A DNA stretch of 64,000 nucleotides from Bdellovibrionota bacterium (lineage in GTDB: Bacteria; Bdellovibrionota_C; UBA2361; OMII01), in the NCBI GenBank assembly GCA_044356215.1, contig JBIKWQ010000003.1:953-64952 (forward strand). Reading direction: 5' to 3'. Numbering within the stretch: position 1 is the stretch's first letter; each line of letters begins with the position of its first letter. Made by a program: the position numbers and the translations under genes. The notes beneath the pieces are model-generated. The model did no database searches and had not been told where the DNA came from. It saw nothing but the letters and a program-made list of their open reading frames with translations. Below are positions 5,109-59,814 of this stretch, in pieces.

Positions 5109-5202
5109 GCTCGGCTCCGAGCGTCAAAAGCTCGGTATCTCGATGTTTTGTTAGTAACGGCGCGTTCGCGCTGTTACCGATAGGGTGTCGCAGTTCTTTA
5201 TC

Positions 5203-5288
5203 ACCACAGAGGACGCAGAGGACACAGAGAACGGCCATTTTATCGGCAATTATAAGGTTTTCTCTGTGTCCTCTGCGTCCTCTGTGGT
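5203..5288. repeat. perfect 29-bp inverted repeat (ACCACAGAGGACGCAGAGGACACAGAGAA / reverse complement) around a 27-nt loop; large hairpin or cruciform-capable element
   Basis: Arms at 5203-5231 and 5260-5288 are exact reverse complements. No confident CDS overlaps them. A 29-mer inverted repeat is far beyond chance expectation in 64 kb. Confidence 0.6.
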
Positions 5289-5389
5289 AAAAAATATTTT
5301 ACTAATTGTCTCAGCAACTTACCAAAAACACTGCGACGCCCTGTGTTACCGAGCAAATAATCGCTTAGGCGAGGTCTTGCCTCGGCGCT

Positions 5390-37827: not shown

Positions 37828-38016
37828 AAAATATAAGCCAGGTTAGGACCAGTAGAATAAAAAGAGTAGCTAAAAAATATGAGGCGCCGGGAATATGTAG
37901 GGGCTAGGCCCACCAGGAGTGGGATGAGATATTGCCCCATTGGGACTTATTTTTATGAGCTTTTGCTGGCTGAACACTCATTTTTATAAGATACCTGGAG
38001 TTACAACGCTGGTCAA
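37828..38016 (-). promoter_or_regulatory. trp promoter and attenuator region
   Basis: A -35 TTGACC (38016-38011), a 17-nt spacer and a -10 TATCTT (37993-37988) lie 6 nt before the leader ATG, which implies a leaderless transcript. The trp-codon hairpin is CCCAC-uccug-GUGGG. A U6 tract (37876-37871) is followed by a second U5 tract before trpE. Confidence 0.5.
37904..37981 (-). CDS. trpL: trp operon leader peptide (25 aa, tandem Trp codons at the C-terminus)
   Basis: The minus strand reads ATG AGT GTT CAG CCA GCA AAA GCT CAT AAA AAT AAG TCC CAA TGG GGC AAT ATC TCA TCC CAC TCC TGG TGG GCC TAG, which is MSVQPAKAHKNKSQWGNISSHSWWA. It ends 77 nt upstream of trpE. A U6 run follows. Confidence 0.6.
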   Translation of the reverse strand: MSVQPAKAHKNKSQWGNISSHSWWA

Positions 38017-38022
38017 GAAATA

Positions 38023-39459
38023 TTAGGGGATGTCTTCTAGGAGCTTTAACAGGGAGCGAAATTTTATTAGGGGGCTATTGTGGCTCTCCAGATATGAAGC
38101 GGCTTTATCATCACTAAAAGGAGCATTTAAATCATCCCATATTGGCCAAATCAGCGATTTATACATGTGAACAGCCGCCGCTCTCATCGCTAAATGCTTT
38201 AGCTCCTCTCTTTGCTGAGGACCTTTCTCATATCCATTCATGAAACTATCAAATAGGCTTAAGTCTATCTCCCCATTCCTTGGCCATCTGCTCCAAATAT
38301 ATAGTATCCATCCTAGCATTACAGGCTCTGGAACGATCGCAACCCTTTCTAAATCCAGCATCGCTACTCTGCCGGAACCATTATTTCTATCGTACTGCCA
38401 GTTTCCTAAATGCGGATCTGAATGAGTCAAACAACACCTGTGATTCAGATTAAATGTATCTTCATACCAACTACATAATCTCGTGAAATTATGAGTATTA
38501 AAATTTAAGAGCTTGAGCGTGGCTTTTAGCTGCGGAGATCCTGACAGCTCCCGATTCAGCAACTCCTCTTCGTGGCTAAAGAGTCTTGCGACTGTCGCGC
38601 CTATTTTTCCTCCGCTGACGGTATTGCCTGTAAAGCCATCACTCGACACATATCCGAGACCTTCCACTTTTATATCAGCAATGCGCCGCATGAGTTCACC
38701 GGCTTTGCGCACAGCGCTGTGTAAAAGGCTCGCGTCTTCATCGCTCTTAGTGTTTTCAGCTCTTAGCAAGATCGCTCTAATCGTCTCTCCAGGTGCAAAA
38801 GTAAAAAAAGTATGCAAAAAAGGGGCGCTAGTAATCAGCTTACAATCGATCTGATCATGCACCCCATGCTGCTTAAAAAACTTTGATATCCTGTATCTCT
38901 GCTTGAGGCGCTCAAAGCTATCAGACTCAGATTTCTTGGCAACTAGCGCCACTATCTGCGACCTATCATCCCGTAATGCCCAGAAACTCATACCTTCGCC
39001 AATGATCTTGAAATCTAACGGTGACTCGTCCTGACTCCTAATAACGCCCCCTGGCAGCACCCTTTTACTAGTTACTTTAAGCAACTCATTTAGGGCCTTC
39101 TCGCGGAAATTATTGAAGCCGCCTCTTAGCTCGGTATTGTCCTTTAATGAGCCCCTCTTCAGCTCCGAGTCCATCGCCGCCAGGCTCAGCGGGAGTTCAT
39201 AAAGCGCCTGCTCGCATCCTTCTCCCGCGTCTGATATCAGATCTATTTTATCCAATACCCTGACTAAAAGCCGCTGCAACGGAGAATCTTGAGCATGTGC
39301 ACCAACAAACTCTTCCAAAGCCTTTCGAGTTAAAGCTACATCTGCAGCTAAACCTCTAAAGCTATTCTTTAAAAATGACTGTGGAGACAACCTACGCTGC
39401 TCATTTTCTAAATGGGGTATGAAGTCCGGTCTTACACCCGAACGCTGATCGAACGCCAT
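38023..39459 (-). CDS. protein-kinase-like fold phosphotransferase (APH/ChoK-type), function unknown
   Basis: 478 aa. It has a catalytic-loop-like THSDPHLGNW (HxDxxxxN) followed by LDLE (DxE metal site), and a helical N-terminal region. Confidence 0.5.
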   Translation of the reverse strand: MAFDQRSGVRPDFIPHLENEQRRLSPQSFLKNSFRGLAADVALTRKALEEFVGAHAQDSPLQRLLVRVLDKIDLISDAGEGCEQALYELPLSLAAMDSELKRGSLKDNTELRGGFNNFREKALNELLKVTSKRVLPGGVIRSQDESPLDFKIIGEGMSFWALRDDRSQIVALVAKKSESDSFERLKQRYRISKFFKQHGVHDQIDCKLITSAPFLHTFFTFAPGETIRAILLRAENTKSDEDASLLHSAVRKAGELMRRIADIKVEGLGYVSSDGFTGNTVSGGKIGATVARLFSHEEELLNRELSGSPQLKATLKLLNFNTHNFTRLCSWYEDTFNLNHRCCLTHSDPHLGNWQYDRNNGSGRVAMLDLERVAIVPEPVMLGWILYIWSRWPRNGEIDLSLFDSFMNGYEKGPQQREELKHLAMRAAAVHMYKSLIWPIWDDLNAPFSDDKAASYLESHNSPLIKFRSLLKLLEDIP

Positions 39460-39603
39460 AATCCACAGAAGCTCAAAAAATACACGCTCTCTGCTTCATT
39501 CTCGCGCTCTTTTTAATACTAATCAAAATTTCTGTGTCGGGTTTAGGGCGTCCTAGACCTTATGAGGGTGGGATAGTTTGTTTTGGATCTAAACACTACG
39601 CAG

Positions 39604-39975
39604 GTGATTTTTGAAAAAATCACTCGCAATAGCAGGGCGAGCGCAATCTTGGCGCCTGCAGATCAGTAGTAGCCCATTTGCGTCGTAAAAGACAAAAAAC
39701 ACTCGAGCCGCAGCGCAGGACTATCTAGTCGTTGAAAGGCGTAAGACTATTGGTGTGTGGGTCGATTTTTAAACGGACAGGAACGCAAATTACTGGCAAA
39801 AGAGCTACGGCTTGAGCGCTATGCGTGCTTCTTGAGATAGAATTAAGTGCATATTTCTGCTCGACGCCTTCACACGCTCGGCACGTAGGAGTTTGTTGTC
39901 TTCTACGGCTCAACTTGGCTCCGCCAAGATTGCGCTCGCCCAGCTATCCTAATTCATTTTTTTCAAAAATGAATT
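39604..39975. repeat. approximately 370-bp element bounded by roughly 50-bp inverted repeats (MITE-like); each arm is an A/T palindrome plus GGGCGAGCGCAATCTTGGCG
   Basis: An exact 20-mer inverted repeat lies at 39636-39655 and 39921-39940. The adjacent ATTTTTGAAAAAAT-containing palindromes are GTGATTTTTGAAAAAATCAC at 39604-39623 and CCTAATTCATTTTTTTCAAAAATGAATTAGG at 39945-39975. The arms are about 75% identical over about 50 bp. Confidence 0.45.
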
Positions 39976-39984
39976 AGGCTGGGT

Positions 39985-41085
39985 TTATACCCCAACCTTC
40001 CCCACATACCCAGTCATCTCAAGATAACCAAATATCCCCTCATCCTCCGAGGTTACCGGCCCCTCCCAGTATTTAACTCCGTGCGCTGATTGATCATCCA
40101 AACCACCGCCAACTTCGCATTGATTAACTCTGGCCTTCAAAACTGCATCGATCCCCTCTGACGGAACCACTACACGCCACTGTATCGGATAATCAGCTCC
40201 GCTCGCCGCGCTCTTCCAATTAACTAAAGGTGTAATCTCAAAATCACTCGCGCTAAGCGCGCGCGTCCCTGTAAGGCTCCTTATGCCACCGGAAGCGAAA
40301 TCCTGCACTCCGTTTTTATTCCTTAGCCTAAACAACATTAAGCTTCGGCCGTCTTTTAAATTCAGACCAAACCAATCCCACCCGACCTGATCAGAGCTAA
40401 GTGAGTTAGTCATAAACTCGTGATCCATCCAGACTAAGCCAGATAAATCCCTCAACTTCCCCGCTCCCTCTCGTAAAGTGGCGCTTACTGCGATTCGCGG
40501 CATCGAGTAATACATTGATGCGCATGACTGACAAGCAGCCTTTTTACTTAATCCAAGTTCACCCTGCAACCACGGCGGACTCAGATCCCCACTTAAGACC
40601 CGCAGCTCCAGATCGAAACCTCTCTCCCCGTCTCGCACTGCAAAACGCGCGAAAAAACGATTCCCCACTGAGTCTATCGTCCAGTCACCTGAGTGAGCCG
40701 CGAGAGAATCATTAGCCACAGATGATATGCCCAGCGCACCTCCACCGACTCTCTTTGCATGATATGTTTTCTGTTTTGAGATATCAGTTAAAGCGGCGTG
40801 CGCCATGTACTCACTTATTATCTTACCTGACTTGCGATCTGAGCGCCTAAAGAAAGTAAGTTGGAATCCATACAAAGGCTTATCCTCGAACAGCTTGGCT
40901 TCCTTACTGAAGAGATGTCCAGTGTAGTACCACCACTCAGTCTGATATTGGTCATGGGCTCCATGATCTCGTGGGAAACTCCATTCATACCCCTTCTCAG
41001 CATGTTTTAACTCCTGCGCTATGACTAACGGGAGAGCTAAGATAATCGCGAAAAAAGCCGATAATACCGAATAAATCTTACTCAT
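39985..41085 (-). CDS. secreted lipocalin-like / CrtC (hydroxyneurosporene synthase)-like protein, AttH family
   Basis: It has a signal peptide and the motifs FPRDHGAHDQYQTEWWYYTGHLF, which are typical of the CrtC/AttH family. It is 366 aa. The start overlaps the end of the FtsX permease gene by 8 nt. Confidence 0.7.
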   Translation of the reverse strand: MSKIYSVLSAFFAIILALPLVIAQELKHAEKGYEWSFPRDHGAHDQYQTEWWYYTGHLFSKEAKLFEDKPLYGFQLTFFRRSDRKSGKIISEYMAHAALTDISKQKTYHAKRVGGGALGISSVANDSLAAHSGDWTIDSVGNRFFARFAVRDGERGFDLELRVLSGDLSPPWLQGELGLSKKAACQSCASMYYSMPRIAVSATLREGAGKLRDLSGLVWMDHEFMTNSLSSDQVGWDWFGLNLKDGRSLMLFRLRNKNGVQDFASGGIRSLTGTRALSASDFEITPLVNWKSAASGADYPIQWRVVVPSEGIDAVLKARVNQCEVGGGLDDQSAHGVKYWEGPVTSEDEGIFGYLEMTGYVGKVGV

Positions 41086-43630: not shown

Positions 43631-44303
43631 CTACTATCGCCCCATCTCGCATGCGAATAACTCTATTACATCTTGCTACCGCGCTCTCACTGTGAGTCGC
43701 CATTATTATCGGCGTCCCCTGGCGGTTCACATCTTGAAGTAAAGTGAGCACCGAGGCGCCAGAAACGGAATCAAGATTGCCCGTAGGTTCATCCGCAATT
43801 AGCAAAGCTGGAGGTCGCGCTACCGCTCTCGCAATCGCGACTCTCTGGGTCTCTCCGCCGGAGAGAGTCGCTGGCACAACCTTTAGCCGGTGAGACAGCC
43901 CCAAGGTACTCAAGATCTCATGAGATCTTCTAAGCGATTCTCTTTCTCCCCATCCATTCAAGATACAAGGCAGCATTACATTCTCCTCAACCGTCAAAGT
44001 TGATAGGAGATTAAAGCTCTGAAAAACATAACCTATCCGCGCACGTCGATACTCTCTTAGCTTCTTGTCGGTGAGATCTCTTAGCGACACCCCCTCAAAC
44101 ACGATCTCTCCAGAGCTGGGGATATCTATTAAACCTAGCAAGCTAAGCAGGGTGCTCTTACCACATCCAGAGGGTCCAATTAGCGCGATAAAATCCGGTC
44201 GGTTCACCACTAAAGAAACTGAGCGGACCGCGTTTACCTCGCGCTCCCCATCCTTGAAAACTCGGACCAACTCACGTGCCTCTAAAAGTGCGGCTTCAGC
44301 CAT
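43620..44303 (-). CDS. ABC transporter ATP-binding protein (MacB/LolD-type)
   Basis: It has Walker A (GPSGCGKST), the ABC signature (LSGGETQRVAIARA) and Walker B (LLIADEPTGNLD). It is 227 aa. Confidence 0.9.
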   Translation of the reverse strand: MAEAALLEARELVRVFKDGEREVNAVRSVSLVVNRPDFIALIGPSGCGKSTLLSLLGLIDIPSSGEIVFEGVSLRDLTDKKLREYRRARIGYVFQSFNLLSTLTVEENVMLPCILNGWGERESLRRSHEILSTLGLSHRLKVVPATLSGGETQRVAIARAVARPPALLIADEPTGNLDSVSGASVLTLLQDVNRQGTPIIMATHSESAVARCNRVIRMRDGAIVDAT

Positions 44304-45519
44304 CGCTATTAACCTTTTTTCCTGAGTGTCCAGGCAATCTAATGTGTCGTGCCACTGTGCGCATCACTGTCTGTTCTTTGGACATAGCGAAGATCCAACC
44401 ACCACAGATCTTAAATGAACTACCCTCGATTCCAAAGCGCTCTAGAGACGCTGATATACGCCTCTTCTCAATCGGCTGAGAGAGTTGATAAAGCGACGCG
44501 AATTTCTCAAAGCACTCAGCCGCGCTAAACCACCCCTTAAAGCGCTCCCGTGGCTCGCGCGCTCTTCGTATCAACTCAGCGAACTCAGAGAAGGCTCTGG
44601 CGTGAACCGCAACACGTCTCCCTTTAACCTCATAAAAGCCCATCAGATCTCTATGTTTGGGGGTTAATTTAAATGATCCCAACTTATCACGCGGCGCTCT
44701 CTCTAACTCACCTCTTAAGAACGAGCTTAAGTGTCGTCCGTGCAACTCAATCACTCGATTTAAAACACCACGCTCCTCTATAAAGACAAATTTACCCGAC
44801 GCCCTTAGACCTTTATTTTTAGAATTAAGTAGATCATAAGGAACCACCATCGGAAAGCTCCTTGGTACCCTACGAGCGCGCTTCGCCAAATTTACCAGCG
44901 CTTTAAATGATACAAGTAAACTACTCTCGCAACCTGGATATCTACGTTGAAGGAACCGCGAGCCAATGGCGATCTGCCTAAATGATTTAATAACAGATTC
45001 AGGAATCAGCAGAGGTCCATCGCGCCTAGCTATCTTAGCCTCTAAGCCGAGTCGGCCTTGGGATAAACTCACTCCGGCCAGCCCAGAAAGCTCTGGATCC
45101 GCTGGATGAAGGTAATCAGCGGCGGGAAGAAGTGAACCCAAGTAGTATGGTAGGCCAAACTTTTGAGGGGCTGGAATCGTGACTGTGATTAGAGATCCAG
45201 TTAATACACTCTTACCTTCTACAAGATACTGCCTCTCTGGGGTGGCGCCATCAAATAGCCACTGCTTAGTTTTCTCGATACTCTTATCGGCGATCCCTTG
45301 GCTCTCTTGAAGCATCCACTTCTGAAAGGTCTCGACCACGCACTCGAAAGCCGATTCTGAAACGAATAGTCCCTTAGGAACAACACGAATATCGTTCCTG
45401 CGAGCCTCAAACCCCTTGTTACCTTTGAGCGACTCAATGAATTTAACTAGCGACGCCTCGCGCGCCTGCTGCGCCTGTCCCTCTGCCATAAGAACCCCTT
45501 CCTTAGGGAAGGCCGGCAA
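44296..45519 (-). CDS. hypothetical basic protein, first gene of the ABC/CrtC-like cluster
   Basis: 407-aa ORF with no TM segment and a high Arg/Lys content. I recognised no family. It overlaps the downstream ATPase gene by 8 nt. The real start is probably the second Met (MAEGQAQQ, at 45489), because the first codons overlap the palindromic element. Confidence 0.5.
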   Translation of the reverse strand: MPAFPKEGVLMAEGQAQQAREASLVKFIESLKGNKGFEARRNDIRVVPKGLFVSESAFECVVETFQKWMLQESQGIADKSIEKTKQWLFDGATPERQYLVEGKSVLTGSLITVTIPAPQKFGLPYYLGSLLPAADYLHPADPELSGLAGVSLSQGRLGLEAKIARRDGPLLIPESVIKSFRQIAIGSRFLQRRYPGCESSLLVSFKALVNLAKRARRVPRSFPMVVPYDLLNSKNKGLRASGKFVFIEERGVLNRVIELHGRHLSSFLRGELERAPRDKLGSFKLTPKHRDLMGFYEVKGRRVAVHARAFSEFAELIRRAREPRERFKGWFSAAECFEKFASLYQLSQPIEKRRISASLERFGIEGSSFKICGGWIFAMSKEQTVMRTVARHIRLPGHSGKKVNSDG

Positions 45520-45699
45520 AACCTACCCGTAGCGAGAAAGTGGAGGTTGAGTTGATATTCGATTTTCGAGATGGGAAAAAACCGCAAGTGTATCCACTGT
45601 GATACATTGAGGATTTTTTCCCATCTCGAAAAGTCGAAGAGCAGCTCAAGATCCGCTTTCGCAGTAGGGAGGGGTTTTGCCGGCCTTCCTTAGGTTTCA
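45497..45699. repeat. nested palindromic element of about 200 bp (MITE-like): outer imperfect inverted repeat, a 19-bp perfect inner inverted repeat and a central 6-bp inverted repeat
   Basis: The outer arms GGAAGGCCGGCAAAACC (45507-45523) and GGTTTTGCCGGCCTTCC (45673-45689) are exact over 17 bp. The inner arms TTTTCGAGATGGGAAAAAA (45563-45581) and TTTTTTCCCATCTCGAAAA (45614-45632) are perfect. The centre is TGTATC-cactgt-GATACA. The motif CTTCCTTAGG occurs at both outer flanks. Confidence 0.45.
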
Positions 45700-45747: not shown

Positions 45748-46893
45748 GTGCAACAGCGCCTTAACTGCCAAATTGATGGTCGAGATTCCTGGTCCAAGGC
45801 CAGAGCTCTGACGATCTCTACTATCCATGGAACCGTAGAGACACCGATATTTATGCCGGTGGCTACCCAAGGCGCGCTGCGCCACATAGATCTCTCCTTC
45901 GCTGACGATCTCGGATACCAGGTATTGCTGGCAAACACATATCACCTAATGATCCGACCTGGCGTTGAACATTTTCAGAGTAACGGCGATCTGCATTCCT
46001 TTATGCGTTGGCCACGTTCTGTGCTAACCGATTCTGGAGGGTTCCAGCTCTTCTCACTTAGTAAGCAGATCCGCATAACCGAGGAAGGCGCCTCATTCAG
46101 AAGCTACACAGATGGCCGCAAGATGCTCCTATCGCCCGAAAGCAGCATCGCGACTCAACGAGCGATCGGCAGCGATATCATGATGGTATTAGATCACTGC
46201 ATCCCGTCGACCTCACCCATAACGGATCTGCGAAAGGCACTTCAGCTAACTACTCGGTGGGCCAAGAGATCTCTTGAGGCACGCGGAGAGTCCAGGCAGG
46301 CGCTCTTTGGAATAGTACAAGGTGGTTGCAACCAAGAGCTAAGGAGCGAGAGTGCCTCGGAGATAACTCAATTAGCTTTCGATGGGTTCGCGCTTGGCGG
46401 GTTAGCAGTCGGCGAGACTCGAGCCGAGAGGGAAGATACGATAGAGTTTGCGGCTCCCCTCTTACCAGATGACAGACCCCGCTATGTAATGGGAATAGGC
46501 ACCCCGATCGATCTCCTTGAGGCGGTGCGTCGCGGGGCGGATATGTTCGATTGCATCCTGCCGACTGCTTTGGCAACTCAAGGTGTAGCTTTTACGAGCC
46601 TAGGAAAAGTGGATCTAAGGAGAGGAGTTTACAAAAACGTAAATTCGCCACTTGATAAAGATTGCCCATGCCGAACATGTCAGAGATTCACGAGAGCCTA
46701 CCTGCATCATTTAGTTAAAGCGAAGGAATCGATCGTTCAACAGCACATCAGTGTCCATAACCTAACTTTCTACAGGTCTCTGATGCATAGAATGCGCCAG
46801 GCTATTCTTGGGAATAGCTTTAGCGAAATGTACGGCAAAGAGGCTGATAAGATAGCAGCGATGGATCTTGAGTTTCCAACGGTAACTGAATGA
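45748..46893 (+). CDS. tgt: queuine tRNA-ribosyltransferase
   Basis: It has the catalytic region VLTDSGGFQ and the zinc site (CPCRTCQRFTRAYLHHL). It is 381 aa. Confidence 0.9.
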   Translation: MQQRLNCQIDGRDSWSKARALTISTIHGTVETPIFMPVATQGALRHIDLSFADDLGYQVLLANTYHLMIRPGVEHFQSNGDLHSFMRWPRSVLTDSGGFQLFSLSKQIRITEEGASFRSYTDGRKMLLSPESSIATQRAIGSDIMMVLDHCIPSTSPITDLRKALQLTTRWAKRSLEARGESRQALFGIVQGGCNQELRSESASEITQLAFDGFALGGLAVGETRAEREDTIEFAAPLLPDDRPRYVMGIGTPIDLLEAVRRGADMFDCILPTALATQGVAFTSLGKVDLRRGVYKNVNSPLDKDCPCRTCQRFTRAYLHHLVKAKESIVQQHISVHNLTFYRSLMHRMRQAILGNSFSEMYGKEADKIAAMDLEFPTVTE

Positions 46894-58640: not shown

Positions 58641-59762
58641 ATGAATAAAAACAGCTCTTTTAGCCTAAAAACGCTTACTATCTCGGCACTGCTCGGAGCA
58701 GTCATCGTTTTACTGTCATACGTATTTTTCAGGCGAGTCGCATATCAACCAACAAATCTAGCTAAACCCCGCCCTATCGCCAGCCGCGCAGATCTCGGCG
58801 ATGACGAAACCTCCACTATCAAGCTATTTGAAAACGCCCAAGCCTCGGTGGTCTATATAACGAGCTTGTCGGTAGAGCGTGATTTTATCAGCATGAACGT
58901 CTTTGAGATCCCGCAAGGAGCCGGTTCGGGTTTTATCTGGGACAGCTCTGGTCACATAGTCACAAATTTCCACCTTATTCAAAACGCGCAAGCTGCCACG
59001 GTAACTCTCTCTGATCAATCTATCCATCAGGCGAAGCTAATTGGGGCGGAACCTGATAAAGATATCGCCGTTCTGAAGATAGAAGGCGCTGACTTACGTT
59101 TCATTCCGATACCTATTGGGACATCAAAGGATCTCCGTGTCGGTCAAAAGGTCTTCGCTATCGGTAATCCTTTCGGCTTTGATCACACATTGACTACGGG
59201 AATAATAAGTGGACTCGGTCGTGAGATCAGGTCTGTTACTGAACGACCGATTCAGGGAGTGATTCAAACAGACGCCGCAATTAATCCAGGGAACTCAGGC
59301 GGACCGCTGCTCGATAGCTCTGGACGCTTAATCGGTATGAATACCGCGATAGTTAGCCCATCAGGGGCGTATTCAGGGATCGGATTTGCGGTGCCTGTTG
59401 ATACTATTAATCGAATCGTTCCTCAGATCATAAAAACCGGTAAAGCGACCAAGCCAGGCCTCGGTATTCGTGTGATTGAGAGCGATCTAGCCCGCAAACA
59501 CGGGGTGATCGGCGCGATCGTCGCTAATGTTTTACCTGGATCACCCGCAGAGAAGATCGGCTTAGAGGGGATTCACCGCTTAGCGAACGGGGCTATAGAG
59601 CTAGGCGATGTGATAACAGCGATAGATGATCTACCTGTTGAGGATGGAAACGATCTCCTAAGGGTACTAGACGAAAAAGCGCCTGGGGATAAAGTAACTC
59701 TACAGATAAATCGACGCGGCAAGTCCCGCGCCGAGACGGCGCGGTTAGGGATCATTGAATAA
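58641..59762 (+). CDS. periplasmic serine endoprotease, DegS/HhoB-like (trypsin domain plus one PDZ)
   Basis: It has an N-terminal TM/signal and the catalytic triad context (HxxTN, D, GNSGGPL), followed by one PDZ domain. It is 373 aa. Confidence 0.9.
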   Translation: MNKNSSFSLKTLTISALLGAVIVLLSYVFFRRVAYQPTNLAKPRPIASRADLGDDETSTIKLFENAQASVVYITSLSVERDFISMNVFEIPQGAGSGFIWDSSGHIVTNFHLIQNAQAATVTLSDQSIHQAKLIGAEPDKDIAVLKIEGADLRFIPIPIGTSKDLRVGQKVFAIGNPFGFDHTLTTGIISGLGREIRSVTERPIQGVIQTDAAINPGNSGGPLLDSSGRLIGMNTAIVSPSGAYSGIGFAVPVDTINRIVPQIIKTGKATKPGLGIRVIESDLARKHGVIGAIVANVLPGSPAEKIGLEGIHRLANGAIELGDVITAIDDLPVEDGNDLLRVLDEKAPGDKVTLQINRRGKSRAETARLGIIE

Positions 59763-59814
59763 AACCTGCGCTCATGATTTTTAATAAAAATCATTATGAA
59801 TTGCTCGGTTTAGT

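Follow-up and report, generated by a model that had tools for sequence, protein, structure and literature searches.

In the 64-kb stretch of DNA analysed here (the window), an AttH/CrtC-like gene and a kinase-like gene, both on the minus strand, are separated by an interval in which a 20-nt sequence occurs twice in opposite orientations. The locus raises the question of whether this interval is a miniature transposable element (MITE), a long structured RNA or a double operator, the three options put forward in the original prediction. The location that had been read from the sequence, between a CrtC-like and a kinase-like gene, was borne out, with an AttH/CrtC-lipocalin protein encoded on one side and a protein with a weak match to APH-type kinases on the other. 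We conclude with high confidence that positions 39590-39987 constitute a non-autonomous MITE, which derives from an insertion sequence (IS) of the IS630 family through the loss of about 900 bp of internal sequence and which is most likely an immobile fossil. The features on which the following account relies are given below with their window positions; names of the type L019 designate metagenome contigs or loci.

39985-41085, minus strand: AttH/CrtC-lipocalin protein, in the upstream operon together with an ABC ATPase and a MacB/FtsX-type permease
38023-39459, minus strand: kinase-like protein of 478 aa with a weak APH-type kinase match, followed by the trp operon (trpE, trpG and the further genes)
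39590-39987, plus strand (the orientation of the ancestral transposase gene): whole element, 398 bp, starting with TAAACAC and ending with GGGTTTA
39590-39700, plus strand: left terminal inverted repeat, a B-type arm on the side of the kinase-like gene, assigned from the table of arms and the match to the IS
39604-39623, strandless: A/T palindrome GTGATTTTTGAAAAAATCAC, module 1 of the left repeat; the same module is found in all family arms
39635-39654, plus strand: left 20-mer GGGCGAGCGCAATCTTGGCG, which makes up the conserved core of the repeat
39757-39837, plus strand: remnant of a dead transposase N-terminus, VGRFLNGQERKLLAKELRLERYACFLR followed by a stop, homologous to the transposase starts of L019 and L035 and also aligned at the DNA level
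39868/39869, strandless: deletion junction, at which about 900 bp are gone (L019 IS positions ~265-1159)
39869-39987, plus strand: right end of the IS, an A-type arm on the attH side
39884-39907: module 3 of the right arm
39908-39935: module 2 of the right arm
39922-39941, minus strand: right 20-mer
39948-39978: A/T palindrome CCTAATTCATTTTTTTCAAAAATGAATTAGG with 14-nt arms that are 100% complementary, module 1 of the right repeat
39985-39987, minus strand: stop codon TAA of the AttH-like gene, formed by the outermost three bases of the element (terminus TAAACCC as read on this strand)
59760-59809, plus strand: relic of the family, about 50 bp, TAAAACCTGCGCTCATGATTTTTAATAAAAATCATTATGAATTGCTCGGTTTA

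Terminal repeats and fold of the element

The 20-mer inverted repeat exists as described, its two sites being shifted by one base from the positions first assigned to them. The window (64 kb) has two exact occurrences, 39635-39654 on the plus strand and 39922-39941 on the minus strand, and the repeat exceeds chance, as had been argued, because none of 100 dinucleotide-preserving shuffles produced a match even when up to three mismatches were permitted. Likewise, the A/T palindromes expected on the outer side of both 20-mers are present (39604-39623 and 39948-39978). The proposed arms of about 50 bp could be recognized as well (39608-39654 and 39922-39968, 47 nt, 81% complementary), and complementarity in fact reaches further inwards, through a second pair of arms (39671-39700 and 39891-39920, 30 nt, 80% complementary), to a length of about 105 nt on each side. 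In a similar manner, the extent of 39604-39975 initially given to the element was roughly correct, and comparison with other copies widens it to 39590-39987, the interval also delimited when a profile of 335-bp family copies was run against the window with nhmmer (E=3e-92).

When the region 39595-39985 was folded as a single strand, one long rod was obtained, with z = -6.9 for the plus strand and z = -7.5 for the minus strand. The interior, 39701-39887, folded alone, behaved like shuffled sequence (z = +0.66 and +0.40), and, as it displays no excess folding, the rod signal stems entirely from the terminal repeats. The rod and the exact 20-mer are two terminal repeats of about 105 nt that face each other across a short element. 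The option of a long structured RNA gained no support: besides the interior without excess folding and a conservation among strains that is no better than that of the flanks, Rfam gave no match with E<=1 in 38500-41000 and none at the gathering score in the whole window, and a search for tRNA and tmRNA genes with ARAGORN found nothing.

Each terminal repeat of the family, of about 105 bp, is built from three palindromic modules, namely an A/T-rich hairpin (module 1), the palindrome GCGCAATCTTGGC-NNN-GCCAAGTTGCGC, which overlaps the 20-mer (module 2), and a palindrome of the type GCCGYAG...CTRCGGC (module 3). To our knowledge, repeats of this length composed of three palindromes are longer and more structured than the usual ends of IS630-family elements. 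Across the 67 arm sequences that differ from one another, six versions of the outer stem of module 1 were found, all perfectly complementary: CTCATTCA/TGAATGAG, GCGAGTGA/TCACTCGC, GCGAATGA/TCATTCGC, GCGCATGA/TCATGCGC, CTCAGTCA/TGACTGAG and the version found in the window, CTAATTCA/TGAATTAG. Between the left and the right end of the element five of the eight stem positions of module 1 differ, each end still being a perfect palindrome, and module 3 varies in a similar paired fashion. At least four further double changes that keep complementarity were detected among the copies, one of them between strains of the window organism that are about 99% identical. These paired changes could result from selection for hairpins at the transposon ends or, equally, from self-correction by template switching, as quasi-palindromes tend to correct themselves in this way without any selection. 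Were they selected, the ends would act as folded single strands of DNA or RNA, in a hairpin-dependent recognition or regulation of the IS630-type transposase or as terminators for the host at gene ends, a scenario that we regard as unlikely.

The two ends of the window copy are not equally preserved. Its left terminus is degenerate (TAAACACTACGCAGG versus the family consensus TAAACCCTGCGCGAG), and the left repeat has lost its second palindromic module, located after the 20-mer.

A dispersed family and its full-length relatives

The multi-copy nature anticipated for a mobile element was confirmed by scanning a metagenome collection with the 20-mer, which retrieved at least 120 stretches; in all, at least 120 family arms are distributed over at least 107 metagenome loci, and about a dozen of the 20-mer matches listed are chance occurrences in GC-rich coding DNA. 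Two types of end were distinguished, an A-type, in which TAAACCCAGCCTCATTCATTTTTGAAAAAAATGAATGAGAATTGCT is followed by the 20-mer and TAGCCAAGTTGCGCCGTAGAAGACAACAAACT..., and a B-type, in which TAAACCCTGCGCGAGTGATTTTTGAAAAAAATCACTCGCAATAGCA is followed by the 20-mer and TAGCCAAGTTGCGCCGTAGAAGACAAAAAAC.... Among the matches listed, the similarity between copies ceases exactly at TAAACCC in both end types, beyond which the DNA is unique, and the flanks are distinct in 106 of the 108 arms for which at least 14 nt of flank are available. Again among the matches listed, TA begins every one of the 110 typed termini, and it is preceded by an A in 75 of 106 instances. Nine complete copies are bounded by TA...TA and show no direct repeat longer than this dinucleotide. 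For many of the arms a contig end is reached after about 55-75 nt, as is typical of a repeat at which assemblies break.

The contigs that host these copies have a G+C content of 46-56%. Several of them (L026, L037, L083 and L091) match other regions of the window collinearly, with a nucleotide identity of 65-77%, which indicates that the family lives in a group of related freshwater bacteria; most metagenome copies belong to related bacteria (about 65-77% nucleotide identity in shared genes) and not to the species of the window. The 64-kb window itself contains a single full copy of the family and one relic of about 50 bp, at 59760-59809, detected by blastn (E=1e-5) and nhmmer (E=0.015). This relic consists of a terminus, an A/T hairpin and the opposite terminus, and its TAA is the stop codon of the ORF at 58641-59762, a second case in the window of an element end that provides a stop codon. 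No match was found when viral contigs were searched with the 20-mer or when the full IS was compared with a plasmid collection at the DNA level, and the end sequences were not encountered in the literature searched.

A relation to gene ends was also seen beyond the window. Of the 100 arms for which 330 nt of flank or more are available (loci L017-L136), 23 have an ORF of at least 100 codons that runs into the element, and of these ORFs 4 end at the terminal TAA and 19 end 22-41 nt (in one case 167 nt) inside the element. Insertion at the extreme 3' end of genes is common, and the new stop codon often comes from the element. A preference of insertion for stop codons was considered and rejected, since the terminal TAA coincides with the end of a long ORF in only 4 of the 100 arms.

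The origin of the family became apparent from its full-length members. In L019, positions 25-1302 form an element of 1278 bp, running from TAAACCC to GGGTTTA, in which an A-type and a B-type end enclose one transposase ORF of 309 aa with matches to the Pfam families DDE_3 (1.1e-29) and HTH_33 (2.9e-13), as well as to HTH_32 and HTH_23. The typical size of IS630-family elements is about 1.1-1.4 kb. L035 holds a second full-length copy, the transposase of which is 74% identical to that of L019 at the amino acid level, and decayed or partial versions of the transposase are found beside arms in L087, L028, L104, L056 and L027. Protein matches in the plasmid collection were all below 60% identity, the best ones being all annotated as 'IS630 family transposase', and the closest of them is encoded by pALVIN01 of Allochromatium vinosum (48% identity). 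Both full-length genes that were read are disrupted, and no intact transposase gene of the family was seen: the gene of L019 (L019:124-1151) is frameshifted by a 2-nt insertion after codon ~45, and that of L035 (L035:1790-2860) contains an in-frame internal stop (SAVY-stop-ADG). Either the sampled copies are dead, or the frameshift is part of the expression of the gene.

The relation between the window element and this IS is direct. In a blastn comparison, positions 1-260 of the L019 IS align with 39590-39864 (76% identity) and positions 1160-1278 with 39869-39987 (92% identity), so that the window copy preserves ~275 bp from the start of the IS, among them the 5' leader and the first ~27 codons of the transposase gene, and 119 bp from its end, and the ~900 bp in between are missing. 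The ends of the window element align with the ends of the IS in L019, and also with those of L035 and L104. The only coding trace in the 398-bp element is the remnant of 27 codons closed by a stop, whose homologue is the N-terminal end of the transposases of L019 (VSRFLTKQERKALEQELRLERYARFLRQ) and L035; an intact transposase gene is absent. Shortened copies of about 335 bp are abundant in the family (L017, L032, L039, L046, L057, L132 and L135), and their deletion differs from that of the window copy, which implies that miniature derivatives arose at least twice.

Taken as a whole, these findings favor the MITE among the options first listed, on account of the dispersed copies (on at least 107 contigs), the full-length IS with the same ends and the window copy as its deletion derivative. 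The window element is shorter than about 600 bp, has no intact transposase gene, shares its ends with a full-length IS and belongs to a family present at many sites. On the side of its full-length relatives, a transposase with HTH and DDE_3 domains and a length of 1278 bp with one transposase gene are those of IS630.

A further long imperfect palindrome was noted in the window at 45504-45692, where arms of 63 nt (76% complementary) surround arms of 32 nt (84% complementary) in a divergent intergenic region between the ORFs 44296-45519 (minus strand) and 45748-46893 (plus strand). Pieces of it recur with 85-87% identity at unrelated loci (L127:5960-6024 and L129:2250-2320), and it is therefore probably a member of a second dispersed repeat family.

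The insertion site and the alternative explanations

Strains about 99% identical to the window are represented by ten metagenome contigs (L001-L010) with identical or near-identical flanking proteins. All strain contigs that span the site (L002, L006-L009 and, partly, L003) carry the element at the same place and in the same orientation. Five substitutions in 398 bp were counted in the element among these strains, and the flanking genes are 99-100% identical; the element is thus no better conserved than its flanks and shows nothing that would point to a particular constraint. A mirrored pair in the A/T palindrome on the attH side accounts for two of these substitutions (CTAATTCA...TGAATTAG in the window versus CTCATTCA...TGAATGAG in the other strains); being so close, the strains are uninformative for covariation. 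Three strain contigs end exactly at the 20-mer core, and since the repeat is multi-copy these breaks are explained without resorting to an inversion. In one strain contig, L010, the first 47 bases correspond to a 35-nt inverted repeat (94% complementary) on CACAGAGGACGCAGAGGACACAGA, which lies in the window at 5197-5294, and this segment (L010:1-47) is joined directly to the interior of the MITE, at position ~39811 of the window. The junction reflects either a chimeric contig of low coverage (1.9x) or an event in that strain, namely a rearrangement or an insertion.

In more distant relatives (L013-L015, with an AttH protein 81% identical, and L016, with 62%) the gene order is kept, and both the element and the kinase-like gene are absent. 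The gap between attH and the trp genes is 209 and 332 bp in the relatives, attH being directly followed by the trp promoter and leader, versus 2157 bp in the window, which shows that the element and the kinase-like gene are both additions in the window lineage. The site reads GGGATA-TA-GAGG in L013 and GGGGTA-TA-AACCC...GTGTT-TA-GATCC in the window, with the similarity ending right after TA, and the attH stop codon is TAG in the element-free L013 versus TAA at 39987-39985 in the window. The AttH-like protein found only two loci in the genome collection, both in Bdellovibrionota MAGs, 39% identical and devoid of the element. The sequence is neither single-copy everywhere nor present at the same site in all relatives. 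The search for empty sites, which had been recommended, gave a site in the relatives that lacks the element and, the kinase-like gene being also absent there, recovered no clean empty site with both flanks. For this reason the duplication of TA is proposed by analogy with IS630/Tc1-mariner elements, which are mobilised in trans and duplicate a TA target; the outermost TA at each side of the element is probably the duplicated target.

Based on this analogy, we hypothesize that a transposase supplied in trans would bind both terminal repeats, excise the element and paste it at a TA dinucleotide, which would be duplicated in the process. The window copy probably inserted at the TA within the AttH-like gene's stop codon and now supplies the TAA of that gene; its left end has decayed since, and the copy is fixed at this site in all sampled strains. 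Due to its degenerate left end and to its fixation in all sampled strains, the window copy is considered an immobile fossil, and it is probably an old insertion with no selected function.

A take-over by the host, which would be compatible with a MITE origin, might nevertheless have turned the element into a terminator or insulator between the attH operon and the kinase-like gene, or into a structured 5' leader of the latter. Its location between two genes of the same strand and its contribution to the attH stop codon would suit such a role, as would the complementarity-preserving double change between strains in the A/T hairpin on the attH side and the terminator-like hairpin that the attH 3' end forms with the element terminus, with a T-rich stretch after it (39998-39976, minus strand). 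However, one terminator-like site in 39300-40200 compares with a mean of 0.9 in shuffles, between strains the element has diverged no more slowly than its flanks, and the same hairpins with the same compensatory pattern occur in all family copies, which makes them a property of the transposon and not of this locus; we therefore consider a take-over unlikely. The hairpin itself is made of 8 bp between GGTTGGGG, from the attH 3' end, and ACCCAGCC, from the MITE terminus, and is followed by AATTCATTTT, the site having been created by the insertion. A scan of 39300-40200 for promoters gave no sigma-70-like site. The double operator suggested at the outset, in which the palindromes would bind a dimeric regulator of the flanking genes, could invoke the similar core (TGATTTTTGAAAAAATCA and TCATTTTTGAAAAAAATGA) of two A/T-rich palindromes separated by about 340 bp. 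Yet five of eight positions in their outer stems differ from one end to the other, and the stems remain complementary although they vary from copy to copy, which agrees better with a structural function or one at transposon ends than with an operator that the host would recognize by its sequence; the same palindromes are found at about 100 unrelated loci as transposon ends, so that this option was abandoned as highly improbable.

Another possibility is that the 20-bp inverted repeats serve as recombination sites of an invertible switch, flipping a segment of 267 bp. It is true that a short segment located upstream of a variable gene is enclosed by exact repeats and that three strain contigs end at them, but all spanning contigs display one orientation, the segment is a transposase remnant without any promoter-like site, and the multi-copy repeat accounts for the contig breaks; an invertible switch is in our opinion extremely improbable. 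The joint absence of the element and the kinase-like gene from the relatives, together with the variability of this gene between strains in DNA otherwise about 99% identical, would agree with their joint arrival as a cassette, the MITE or its parent IS carrying or capturing the gene. Against it, no element end was found between 37800 and 39590 by nhmmer or by blastn with the IS and the MITE, the kinase-like gene lies outside the terminal repeats, and no such neighbor accompanies the other ~100 copies listed. We know of no IS630-type element that moves flanking DNA with a single end, and a common cassette is judged to be quite improbable. A retron and an integron cassette were also considered and discarded, as neither a reverse transcriptase nor a recombinase is present and the distribution is multi-copy. 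The interpretation as an IS630-derived MITE is consequently retained.

The kinase-like gene deserves some description of its own. Its variable segment (38007-39293) displays 64% amino acid identity, together with indels, between strains with otherwise ~99% identical DNA, and the 99-100% identical flanks of this segment take in codons 1-55 as well as the leader and the MITE, a variation that looks like allelic replacement under diversifying pressure. Two relatives of the protein were matched among 5.8 billion proteins; the motif HSDPHLGNW, resembling a catalytic loop, is kept, and no match was obtained against PADLOC, NCBIfam or PDB sequences. The block missing in the relatives with 81% and 62% identical AttH (about 38027-39984, 1.96 kb) comprises the kinase-like gene, a leader of 130 bp and the MITE, and the stop codon of the kinase-like gene abuts the -35 region of the trp promoter. 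This promoter (about 37988-38016, TTGACC-N17-TATCTT) precedes a trp leader peptide, MSVQPAKAHKNKSQWGNISSHSWWA (37904-37981, minus strand), upstream of trpE, with tandem Trp codons near its end, and L013 conserves ...SWWA followed by a stop; to judge from its sequence, the leader is a putative attenuator of classical arrangement.

Relation to known elements

The identification of the element explains at once the inverted repeat, the apparent 'structured RNA' signal (z of about -7), why contigs of several assemblies break at this locus, and where the attH stop codon comes from. It also defines an undescribed IS of the IS630 family with at least two independent miniature derivatives, the 398-bp type of the window and the ~335-bp type. 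The family is spread through uncultured freshwater bacteria and fragments their metagenome assemblies, and a profile of it would make such assemblies easier to close and would keep its copies from being miscalled as RNA genes. Its biology is otherwise ordinary, the notable trait being the unusually long modular terminal repeats.

The family is thus an undescribed member of a well-known kind, the MITEs of the IS630 family. As in IS630 elements, the full-length copies in L019 and L035 have a single transposase gene of the HTH and DDE_3 type, terminal inverted repeats and TA at their ends; they are set apart by modular repeats of about 105 bp, and the window element by the lack of a transposase gene, of which it keeps a remnant of 27 codons. 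REPINs and REP doublets, associated with RAYT, and palindromes derived from IS200/IS605 are likewise dispersed intergenic hairpins with modules that keep their complementarity, but these are associated with Y1 (HUH) transposases and have no long terminal repeats matching those of a DDE IS, whereas the transposase here is of the DDE_3 type and the window element is a deleted copy of the IS that encodes it. The Correia elements of Neisseria and other TA-target MITEs are short, non-coding and multi-copy, possess terminal inverted repeats and often reside in intergenic regions or at gene ends. Correia-type elements can fold as a long hairpin when transcribed, and effects on transcription have been shown for Correia; they measure about 100-155 bp and have no firmly identified parent IS. 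The family described here has no sequence relationship with Correia elements, which are also shorter, and, in contrast to them, its parent IS has been found and the deletion junction can be mapped.
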